Positions 37,393 through 39,546 of a stretch of 64,000 nucleotides of DNA are shown here, piece by piece. The notes below the pieces were generated by a model. The model was given only the letters and a program-made list of their open reading frames with translations, was not told the origin of the DNA and made no database searches. The stretch spans positions 32,001 to 96,000 of the forward strand of contig CAVVCZ010000001.1 of NCBI GenBank assembly GCA_963746845.1. Direction: 5' to 3'. Numbering within the stretch: the first letter of the stretch is position 1; every line of letters starts with the position of its first letter. The position numbers and the translations under genes were made by a program. This DNA comes from an uncultured Chloroflexia bacterium (GTDB lineage Bacteria; Chloroflexota; Limnocylindria; Limnocylindrales; CSP1-4).

Positions 37393-39546
37393 ATGCTGAT
37401 CGTCGGCATCCTGTTCGGCCTCACGCTGGGCCTGCTCGGCGGGGGCTCGATCAACAACCTCGCGAACGTCCGGCTGCGCTGGGTCTGGGTGCTGCTCCTC
37501 GCGGTAATCCTCCGGTTCGGCACGGAGTACCTGCTGATCCGCGGGAACGAGATCGTCGAGGCCCTGCGACTGCCGCTCTTCGTCGCCGCCTTCGGGATGC
37601 TCCTCGCCGCACTCTGGGTCAACCGCTCGCAGCCGGGCCTCCGGATCGCGTTCGTCGGCATCCTCCTGAACACGATCGCGATCCTCGCGAACGGCGGATA
37701 CATGCCGATCTGGCTGCCCAGCCTGCTGGCCGCCGGGTTCCAGCCGTCGGACGTGACGCCGTTCCACGTCCTGCTCCCCGCCGGCCTGACACTCGACTTC
37801 TTCCGGCACGCCGGACCGATCGCCGACATCCTCCCGATCCCGCTGCCGCTGATCCAGAACGTGGCCTCGATCGGCGACGTCTTCCTCACGGCCGGCCTGG
37901 CCTTCTTCCTGTTCGCCACGGTCGTCCGCACCCAGGACGAGGAAGACGAAGCAGCCGAGGACCTGGGCGAGCGCCACATGGCCGGGCTGGCGGCGACCGC
38001 GCGGATGCCGCGCAGCCTCTCGAGCGCCATGGGCGGCCAGCGGATCCGCCCGGGCACGGGTCTGGCCCCGGGCCTCACCGAGACGGCCGCCCTGAACCGG
38101 CCACTCGTCTTCGGCACGCCGGCTCCCGGTCTCGCGGGCCCGAGCACCGACCGGGTCGAGCTGATCGGCCGGCCGGGAACCCTCAGCGCGGCCGCGATGG
38201 GTGGACGGGTGGTCGCGCTCGCCCCGGTCCCCGCGGCCGGCACGGTCCCGTTCGACGACGGGGTCGCGGCCCCGGCGCGTCCACGGGTCGAGGTCGGCGC
38301 GCGGGTCCGCCGGCACCCGTACGTCCGTCTCGCCCTCAACGGCTCGTTCTCGGCGCTGTGGACCGGACAGTTCATCAGCCTCTTCGGCGACCGGGTCCAT
38401 CAGATCGCGCTGACGTTCCTCGTGGCGGCGGTCACGGATTCGCCGCTCGCGGTGGCATTCGTCTTCGTCGCGGCCACGATCCCGAACCTGCTGCTCTCGC
38501 CGATCGCAGGCACCTATGTCGACCGGTGGAACCAGCGCGACGTGATGATCGTGAGCGATCTCCTGCGGGCCGCCCTCGTCTTGCTGATCCCGATCGCGGC
38601 TGCCGCGAACATCTACCTCGTCTACCCCTTCGTCTTCCTGCTCACCTCCATCTCGATCTTCTTCCGGCCGGCTCGGGTCGCGGTCCTCCCGCGGATCGTC
38701 CGGGGGGACGAGCTGCTGACCGCGAACTCGGCGATGTGGGCGGGCGAGACCTTCGCGGACGTCATCGGCTACCCGCTGGCGGGCATCTTCGTGGCGTTCC
38801 TCGGGCCTGCGCTACCGCTGGCGTTCTGGTTCGACGCCGCGACCTATGCGGCCTCGGCGATCCTCATCGCGACGATCGCCGTCCCCGCCGTCAAGCGGCG
38901 ACGCGCGGCGAGCGCCGACGGCGGCAGCCCCGAGGGCGGTGTCCTCGCCGAGATGCGCGAGGGCTTCCGGTTCCTCCGCCGCGAACCGGTCCTGCTCGCG
39001 AACACGATCCAGGCGACCTTCGCCCAGTTCGCGATCGGGTCGCTGACAGCCCTCACGCCGATCTTCGTGCGCGACGTCCTGGCGCCGACGAACGTCGACC
39101 CGAAGGCGGCCTACGCATTCCTGGAAACGGCGATCGGCGTCGGCAACCTGGTCGGTGGCTTCGTCATCGGCCTGATCGGGGTGCGGCTCGCGAAGGGCCG
39201 CAGCATCATCGCGGGCTACGTGATGTGGGGCATCACGATGATCCTGTTCGCGTTGAGCGGAAACCTGCTGGTCGACTTCGGGATCCTGTTCGGCGCGGGC
39301 GTCGCCAACATGGTGTTCGTGATCCCGAGCCAGGTCCTGTTCCAGGAGCGCACGCCGGCCGACATGATCGGGCGGGTCGTGGGCTTCCGATTCGCGCTCG
39401 TCTTCGGGTCGATGACGCTGGCGATGGCCCTCGGAGGCCTTGCCGCACAGGCGGTCGGGACGGTGCCGGTGCTCGTCGTGAGCGGCCTGATGTCGGTCGT
39501 TGCGGGACTCGCCGGCCTGCTGGTGCCGCCGCTGCGTGACGCCTGA
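37393..39546 (+). CDS. DUF5317-like membrane domain fused to an MFS transporter
   Basis: N-terminal LGLLGGGSINNL..VRLRW, GILLN...LANGGYMP, IADILP and SIGDVF; Pro/Ala linker; C-terminal MFS (AGTYVDRWNQR). Confidence 0.8.
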   Translation: MLIVGILFGLTLGLLGGGSINNLANVRLRWVWVLLLAVILRFGTEYLLIRGNEIVEALRLPLFVAAFGMLLAALWVNRSQPGLRIAFVGILLNTIAILANGGYMPIWLPSLLAAGFQPSDVTPFHVLLPAGLTLDFFRHAGPIADILPIPLPLIQNVASIGDVFLTAGLAFFLFATVVRTQDEEDEAAEDLGERHMAGLAATARMPRSLSSAMGGQRIRPGTGLAPGLTETAALNRPLVFGTPAPGLAGPSTDRVELIGRPGTLSAAAMGGRVVALAPVPAAGTVPFDDGVAAPARPRVEVGARVRRHPYVRLALNGSFSALWTGQFISLFGDRVHQIALTFLVAAVTDSPLAVAFVFVAATIPNLLLSPIAGTYVDRWNQRDVMIVSDLLRAALVLLIPIAAAANIYLVYPFVFLLTSISIFFRPARVAVLPRIVRGDELLTANSAMWAGETFADVIGYPLAGIFVAFLGPALPLAFWFDAATYAASAILIATIAVPAVKRRRAASADGGSPEGGVLAEMREGFRFLRREPVLLANTIQATFAQFAIGSLTALTPIFVRDVLAPTNVDPKAAYAFLETAIGVGNLVGGFVIGLIGVRLAKGRSIIAGYVMWGITMILFALSGNLLVDFGILFGAGVANMVFVIPSQVLFQERTPADMIGRVVGFRFALVFGSMTLAMALGGLAAQAVGTVPVLVVSGLMSVVAGLAGLLVPPLRDA

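Follow-up and report, generated by a model that had tools for sequence, protein, structure and literature searches.

Described partner domains of HD-GYP phosphodiesterases, enzymes of cyclic di-GMP (c-di-GMP) turnover, include DUF3391, DUF3369, and MASE9-11 (10.1101/2021.11.05.467447); DUF5317 (PF17248) is absent from the passages of that paper on HD-GYP partners, and a full-text search for 'DUF5317' did not return it. The present analysis concerns a DUF5317 domain fused to a transporter of the major facilitator superfamily (MFS), which is encoded downstream of an HD-GYP gene in a stretch of 64,000 nucleotides from an uncultured Chloroflexia bacterium (contig CAVVCZ010000001.1, positions 32,001 to 96,000; hereafter the window). 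This protein represents, in fused form, a gene set that recurs and comprises a c-di-GMP enzyme (here the HD-GYP protein), DUF5317, and an MFS_3 transporter, and DUF5317 is strongly linked to c-di-GMP enzymes. The domain is tentatively viewed as a regulatory module of the membrane that binds a ligand or an ion and links the exporter to the turnover of c-di-GMP, a reading that we hold at nearly even chances. No paper naming DUF5317 or PF17248 was found in full-text literature searches, and no earlier report was found of a c-di-GMP-linked membrane module containing a DUF5317-MFS fusion.

Several described systems resemble this protein in part. The MASE9-11 domains are membrane domains with conserved polar residues and, like DUF5317, are joined genomically and occasionally physically to HD-GYP, EAL, and GGDEF domains; moreover, MASE9-HD-GYP proteins themselves adjoin DUF5317 in several loci. 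DUF5317 differs from them in that it mostly stands in a gene of its own or is joined to an MFS transporter, and only rarely to a signalling output domain. The C-terminal 400 aa, with 12 helices and motif A, are similar to DHA3/MFS_3 efflux proteins (EntS, Mef, Tet(V), and TIGR00900), but the window MFS lies far below all the NCBIfam cut-offs of the named transporters, none of which is known to us to carry an N-terminal DUF5317. In peptidase-containing ABC exporters and in LplT-Aas fusions a transporter is likewise fused to a second functional module, and the LplT/Aas models match the MFS part of the window protein weakly; in contrast to those fusions, DUF5317 has no recognisable enzyme fold or family.

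The fusion, its parts, and the HD-GYP gene lie in the window as follows.

37393..39546, forward strand: open reading frame (ORF) of the fusion, comprising DUF5317, linker, and MFS_3/DHA3-type transporter; 717 aa, ATG start, no internal stop
37393..37932, forward strand: DUF5317 domain, aa 1-180 (Pfam match aa 26-173), with an AlphaFold2 (AF2) model; topology predicted from Lys/Arg counts of the loops
37669..37707, forward strand: motif N93-x6-N100-G-G-x-M104-P105, end of transmembrane (TM) helix 4 and first strand; invariant or nearly invariant in alignments
37819..37878, forward strand: I-A-D145-I-L-P through S159-I-G-D162, beta hairpin and start of TM5; both Asp invariant
37966..38289, forward strand: linker core, aa 192-299, Ala/Gly/Pro-rich and predicted disordered (predicted local distance difference test, pLDDT, below 50); G+C content at third codon positions (GC3) 0.90
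38341..39525, forward strand: MFS domain, aa 317-711, 12 predicted TM helices; motif A G373-x3-D377-R378
35771..37206, forward strand: HD-GYP phosphodiesterase gene with HDVGK and HHHEWFNGSGYP; multi-TM N-terminal part

A sequence-only reading of this DNA had proposed that a DUF5317-like domain is fused to a full MFS domain, and the Pfam scan confirmed it, each domain being clearly matched in the one 717-aa ORF: PF17248, whose 151-position model is covered from position 2 to position 150 by aa 26-173 (E 5.8e-24; 85.3 bits, cut-off 25), and MFS_3 (PF05977, aa 317-711, E 2.4e-29) and MFS_1 (PF07690, E 4.2e-28), both over their full length. The GC3 values of 0.97 in DUF5317, 0.90 in the linker, and 0.93 in the MFS part indicate that a single frame is coding throughout. 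The motifs to which the same reading had drawn attention are present exactly as quoted (N93-x6-N100-G-G-Y-M104-P105, I143-A-D145-I-L-P148, and S159-I-G-D162) and are the signature of the DUF5317 family, not a chance occurrence; in an alignment of 24 diverse members, just 24-44% identical to the window's domain, the invariant residues are N77, G89, N93, G102, M104, P105, D145, S159, G161, D162, and G168. The linker (about 110 aa) is partly conserved in close relatives and shortened or missing in distant fusions. In the MFS part, motif A, located between TM2 and TM3, is invariant in alignments, and among the NCBIfam models the DHA3-like TIGR00900 (2A0121 H+ antiporter subfamily) matches best, with a score of 209.6 that misses the curated cut-off of 319.6; the named efflux models (Mef, Tet(V), EntS, Tap, and LplT) reach 31-77 bits against cut-offs of 131-1349, the Mef(A) model giving 76.5 bits against 675.

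The fusion is widespread among relatives. Since 118 of the 120 best database matches to the whole protein (query included) carry PF17248 and MFS, it is not an assembly artefact; the two that do not are shorter (595 and 606 aa) and come from contigs about 2 kb in length. The taxon-labelled best matches belong mostly to Chloroflexota or Candidatus Limnocylindrales, with one Patescibacteria group. In the phylum, DUF5317 is found in 92 of 301 sampled genomes (a tally that includes the unpublished G227), and open frames of fusion length, which are a proxy only for the fusion, are present in 15/15 genomes of family f1 and 13/15 of f3, both in the window's class. When eight loci were checked by tblastn, the fusion was in frame in seven, with the parts in different frames in L057. 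A search with an actinobacterial DUF5317 region among proteins of 465-1481 aa gave 76 matches, namely 72 DUF5317+MFS (several labelled Actinomycetota), two DUF5317+EAL, and two DUF5317 alone. In another Chloroflexota family, f17, the parts are encoded apart by genes that abut one another, in the order HD-GYP, MFS_3, DUF5317, AI-2E-family transporter (6/6 loci), and in 5/5 cases the best match of the f17 MFS in the window's genome is the fused gene (about 31% identity). The occurrence of the fusion in two phyla together with the abutting genes of f17 indicates that DUF5317 and the MFS transporter work together. The Rosetta-stone argument of the sequence-only reading, that the fusion couples cleavage to transport, thus holds for the coupling of DUF5317 to the transporter, and its cleavage part is unsupported.

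As a side observation, the four-gene set of f17 (L284-L288, L246) is the split counterpart of the window's fusion plus a second exporter. The family as a whole is sizeable, with 5445 clusters at 50% identity (E <= 0.001), and rarer architectures occur in it: P0250/P0395 show DUF5317+MFS+Metalloenzyme (673 aa) and, in a protein of 852 aa labelled Actinomycetota, DUF5317+MFS with HEAT-type repeats after it. In P0316 (4736 aa) 26 separate stretches match the DUF5317 profile, the best of them at profile positions 24-94; this may reflect either a protein built of repeats or an artefact of low complexity.

The linkage to c-di-GMP enzymes was followed in several sets of loci, whose counts overstate the number of independent events because related genomes are non-independent samples. 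For the 30 best-scoring loci of the phylum with a stand-alone DUF5317 gene, there were 165 ORFs of 190 aa or more within flanks of 1.5 kb, and 108 of these were hand-picked for the Pfam scan; the DUF5317 ORFs, ORFs overlying them, and some antisense shadows were not among the 108. A c-di-GMP enzyme gene (HD_5, GGDEF, or EAL) was found in 15/30 loci, with HD_5 in 14 and GGDEF-EAL in one; BTAD regulators were found in 13 and MFS_3 in five. In 48 further loci of the phylum, scanned over flanks of 3.5 kb with a local tblastn panel (E <= 1e-5), HD-GYP/GGDEF/EAL matches were present in 14 and BTAD in seven; the background given by the same panel for a random position in the window's genome is 1.7% within 1.5 kb and 3.4% within 3.5 kb. 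Paralogue-type loci, fetched with a seven-row alignment and derived from metagenome-assembled genomes labelled Chloroflexota except one labelled Steroidobacteraceae, have a GGDEF-EAL gene in 39/80 cases, directly upstream and on the same strand in 32. Metagenome loci fetched with an Actinomycetota-type alignment, on contigs that bear no taxon label, likewise have a c-di-GMP enzyme gene in 39/80 cases, and in 24 of the 32 that offer at least 2.5 kb of upstream sequence; for MFS fusions from metagenomes with the same minimum of upstream sequence the figure is 9/12.

Plasmids provide further cases. The window's own DUF5317 domain found no plasmid match by tblastn, and other members of the family found three outside the Chloroflexota (Actinomycetota and Bacillota), all three linked to c-di-GMP enzymes. 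In a plasmid of Euzebya pacifica, DUF5317 (28-162) and EAL (579-815) form one protein of 846 aa encoded directly after a GGDEF-EAL gene; a plasmid of Natranaerobius thermophilus carries MASE9-HD-GYP and then DUF5317; in that of Subdoligranulum variabile the gene order is HD-GYP, DUF5317, GGDEF. The DUF5317 gene of N. thermophilus (L154 4778-5285) is annotated as two overlapping coding sequences of 93 aa each, which suggests a frameshift in the record. One database fragment, among 49, has HD_5 and DUF5317 within the same ORF. No similarity was seen between the N-terminal membrane regions of HD-GYP partners and those of GGDEF-EAL partners, so that no common docking domain was found among them.

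In the window, the HD-GYP gene ends 187 nt upstream of the fusion ORF, and its HHHEWFNGSGYP fits the HD-GYP motif HHExh[D/N]GxGYP as quoted in 10.1101/2021.11.05.467447. The genome has only three HD_5 genes, one of which is this one, and in 8/8 genomes of the same class the BTAD regulator, HD-GYP, and DUF5317::MFS follow one another in conserved synteny. The two other DUF5317 genes of the genome, on contig C5, are stand-alone paralogues that flank a membrane GAF-GGDEF-EAL gene.

The N-terminal 194 aa were modelled by AF2 with a pLDDT of 95.4 and a predicted template modelling score (pTM) of 0.87. The DUF5317 model has five TM helices, at aa 2-15, 31-49, 59-76, 83-99, and 160-178, with a four-stranded sheet and two short helices between TM4 and TM5. 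The full-length model (pLDDT 77.5, pTM 0.75) adds a 12-helix MFS, with aa 192-299 disordered. Lys and Arg are abundant in loops 1 and 3 and in the tail of DUF5317, and loops 2 and 4 are acidic; MFS transporters are expected to have a cytoplasmic N terminus. The loop charges, taken with this expectation, suggest that DUF5317 has its N terminus outside and its C terminus inside, and that the sheet, with most of the invariant residues, is on the outer face. The loops predicted to be cytoplasmic are 6-15 residues long in the model and rich in Arg. Complex prediction between the MFS domain (aa 305-717) and the DUF5317 domain (aa 1-185), with 48-row alignments, gave a median score of 0.10.

On these grounds the protein can be pictured as one inner-membrane protein with two modules, in which DUF5317 contributes five TM helices and a small sheet, predicted to face outward, where the invariant Asn, Asp, Ser, and Met-Pro are located. 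A tether of about 110 aa, disordered and predicted to be cytoplasmic, joins it to the 12-TM MFS module, and the latter would act as a proton-coupled exporter of the MFS_3/DHA3 type. DUF5317 would then be no peptidase and would have a role comparable to that of the MASE-type membrane domains of c-di-GMP enzymes, connecting the transporter with the c-di-GMP turnover carried out by the HD-GYP phosphodiesterase encoded next to it. Two routes can be envisaged: DUF5317 may sense something at the outer face of the membrane and relay it onward, or it may report the state of the transporter.

Several observations weigh against this regulatory reading. The eleven invariant residues, which include two Asp, a Ser, and a Met and are retained at 24-44% identity, resemble a catalytic or ion-binding site more than they do a typical sensor, and fusions to signalling output domains are rare (2/76 long forms and the HD_5+DUF5317 fragment); the combination of these two is the strongest counterpoint. 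In addition, 49/78 stand-alone loci of the phylum have no c-di-GMP gene within flanks of 1.5-3.5 kb, and in five of these 49, all of f17, an HD-GYP gene appears about 2 kb upstream once the flanks are widened. The sampled genomes are related to each other, the HD-GYP gene of the window is split over three frames in the assembly, and a literature search found no experiment on any DUF5317 protein.

The residues that form this counterpoint can also be read in terms of transport. DUF5317 would in that case be a plain transport accessory without a part in signalling; its additional TM helices would extend or gate the MFS through binding of a cation or of the substrate, and the proximity of the c-di-GMP genes would have unrelated regulatory causes. 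The invariant Asn, Asp, and Met-Pro set is reminiscent of metal or ion sites in transporters, DUF5317+MFS is the dominant multidomain form (118/120 and 72/76), and in f17 the DUF5317 gene lies between two transporters. However, many stand-alone DUF5317 genes lie beside HD-GYP or GGDEF-EAL genes with no transporter in their flanks, and one DUF5317 is fused to an EAL protein. A role confined to transport is considered unlikely, with perhaps one chance in several of being right.

The other reading of the invariant set is enzymatic, and the sequence-only reading had taken this course in likening the N-terminal domain to the signal peptidase LspA (peptidase A8, PF01252). More generally, DUF5317 might be an outward-facing membrane hydrolase (a peptidase, or a lipid or glycan hydrolase or transferase) that processes the cargo of the MFS, with D145, D162, and perhaps S159 as catalytic residues and the c-di-GMP genes acting only as regulators. 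Its two invariant Asp are 17 residues apart and, together with an invariant Ser and Asn, are predicted at the outer boundary of the membrane; LspA, too, is a small multi-TM protein with outward-facing strands and has two conserved Asp at a comparable distance (about 17-27 residues) near the outer face. There is a weak likeness of motifs, FSIGD of DUF5317 resembling FNVAD of LspA, and FSIGDV resembling FGMGDV of prepilin peptidase, and the coupling of DUF5317 to exporters, of the MFS_3 and AI-2E families, is persistent.

Nevertheless, no homology to LspA was detected. LspA has four TM helices with both ends inside. In the model of DUF5317, in contrast, there are five, the sheet follows TM4 and precedes TM5, and the N terminus is probably outside. 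In hhalign comparisons with an LspA alignment built from the LspA of the window's genome and those of its relatives, the 30-row DUF5317 alignment A1 gave a probability of 6.3% and alignment A3 one of 0.65%, the latter placing FSIGD on FNVAD, a likeness that appears to exist at the level of the motif only. An equivalent of the LspA motif GNxxDR is absent from DUF5317, and the position aligned with its Asp in A1 is Ala. The comparison with prepilin peptidase (A24) gave 1.6% over 21 columns around SxGD only, and no profile homology covering both Asp motifs of these GxGD aspartic peptidases was obtained. Neither for the window protein (E up to 1) nor for the 24 members (E up to 10) did Pfam return a peptidase family; among PDB sequences the DUF5317 profile yielded two chance-level rows and nothing else, and the ESM Atlas sequence search gave DUF5317 clusters only. 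With the DUF5317 model, at a pLDDT of about 95, Foldseek found 0 matches in the PDB at E <= 0.001; a structure search over 48,161 representative chains listed 50 generic helical proteins with Z of 6.7-8.8, among which chains of LspA, FlaK, and presenilin are absent, a result that does not show that the folds differ. Within the reach of these tools, the fold comparison that had been proposed as a check thus revealed no structural similarity to any peptidase. Furthermore, LspA is present in 21/21 genomes, including the window's own (canonical LspA at C4:888199-888612), and no conserved gene for a precursor peptide was apparent from the synteny. The LspA-like peptidase is consequently set aside as unsupported, and an attractive annotation is removed, although the two invariant Asp may still have a catalytic role.

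For an outward-facing hydrolase in the broad sense the chances appear slightly poorer than for the transport accessory. A narrower version, in which DUF5317 is a membrane Asp145/Asp162 hydrolase of a new fold that acts outside on the MFS cargo under c-di-GMP control by HD-GYP or GGDEF-EAL proteins, is distinctly improbable; if true, it would make the DUF5317-MFS unit a second-messenger-gated machine for processing and export. Finally, the proposal that DUF5317 is a c-di-GMP-responsive element switching the exporter on or off, by a cytoplasmic face that binds the nucleotide or through the HD-GYP/EAL protein as a trigger enzyme, draws on the gene linkage and on the Arg-rich cytoplasmic loops and is the least probable of all; against it, these loops are short, the cytoplasmic R27, R29, and R78 are not invariant in the diverse alignment, the invariant residues except N77 are on the outer half, and Pfam found no known c-di-GMP binding domain in the window protein or in the 24 members.

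The surroundings of the fusion include the following features.

31875..35309, forward strand: large BTAD-type transcription regulator, 1144 aa, syntenic with the module
35344..35373, forward strand: promoter-like site upstream of the HD-GYP gene, 10/12 matches, by consensus scan only
39648-40436, forward strand: downstream gene, GC3 0.88; very acidic N-terminal half, one TM helix, Ser/Pro/Ala-rich tail
40503-41180: PCMT gene, following the gene at 39648-40436
C5:224000-243000, positions 8340-12332 of that stretch, minus strand: the two DUF5317 paralogues and GAF-GGDEF-EAL; same layout in a genome of the same genus (L249)

Compared with an intact orthologue of 516 aa (L056), the N-terminal part of the HD-GYP protein is distributed over three frames (35771-36127, 36126-36356, and 36433 onward), the frame changing close to 36127 and once more somewhere from 36356 to 36433; in another genome of the same genus (L055) the gene has one shift. 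Public contigs aligned to 35700-37450 leave 35936-36348 uncovered, and one spans 36376-36725 with no gap. The five DNA sequencing runs listed contribute small shares, and no RNA run is among those listed. The breaks may be an assembly error or reflect a degraded gene. Between 37206 and 37393 no terminator-like site was found in a consensus scan, and this, with the promoter-like site, is weak evidence on the layout of the HD-GYP gene and the fusion ORF. The stretch 33000-36000, which covers the C-terminal half of the BTAD gene and the start of the HD-GYP gene, has a G+C content of 0.60-0.63 compared to 0.70-0.76 around it, and an identity of 64% to the orthologue of the same genus compared to 86-90% on either side. 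The protein of 39648-40436 matches no Pfam family and is conserved in the same genus (55% identity).

In Chloroflexota, and on single plasmids from Actinomycetota and from Bacillota, DUF5317 is repeatedly paired with HD-GYP, GGDEF, or EAL proteins and with MFS_3 exporters, which places the family in a context that can be tested, as a membrane component of c-di-GMP signalling wired to small-molecule export. To our knowledge, HD-GYP phosphodiesterases have few known inputs and outputs, and the conserved module of enzyme, DUF5317, and transporter is a concrete place in which to seek them.

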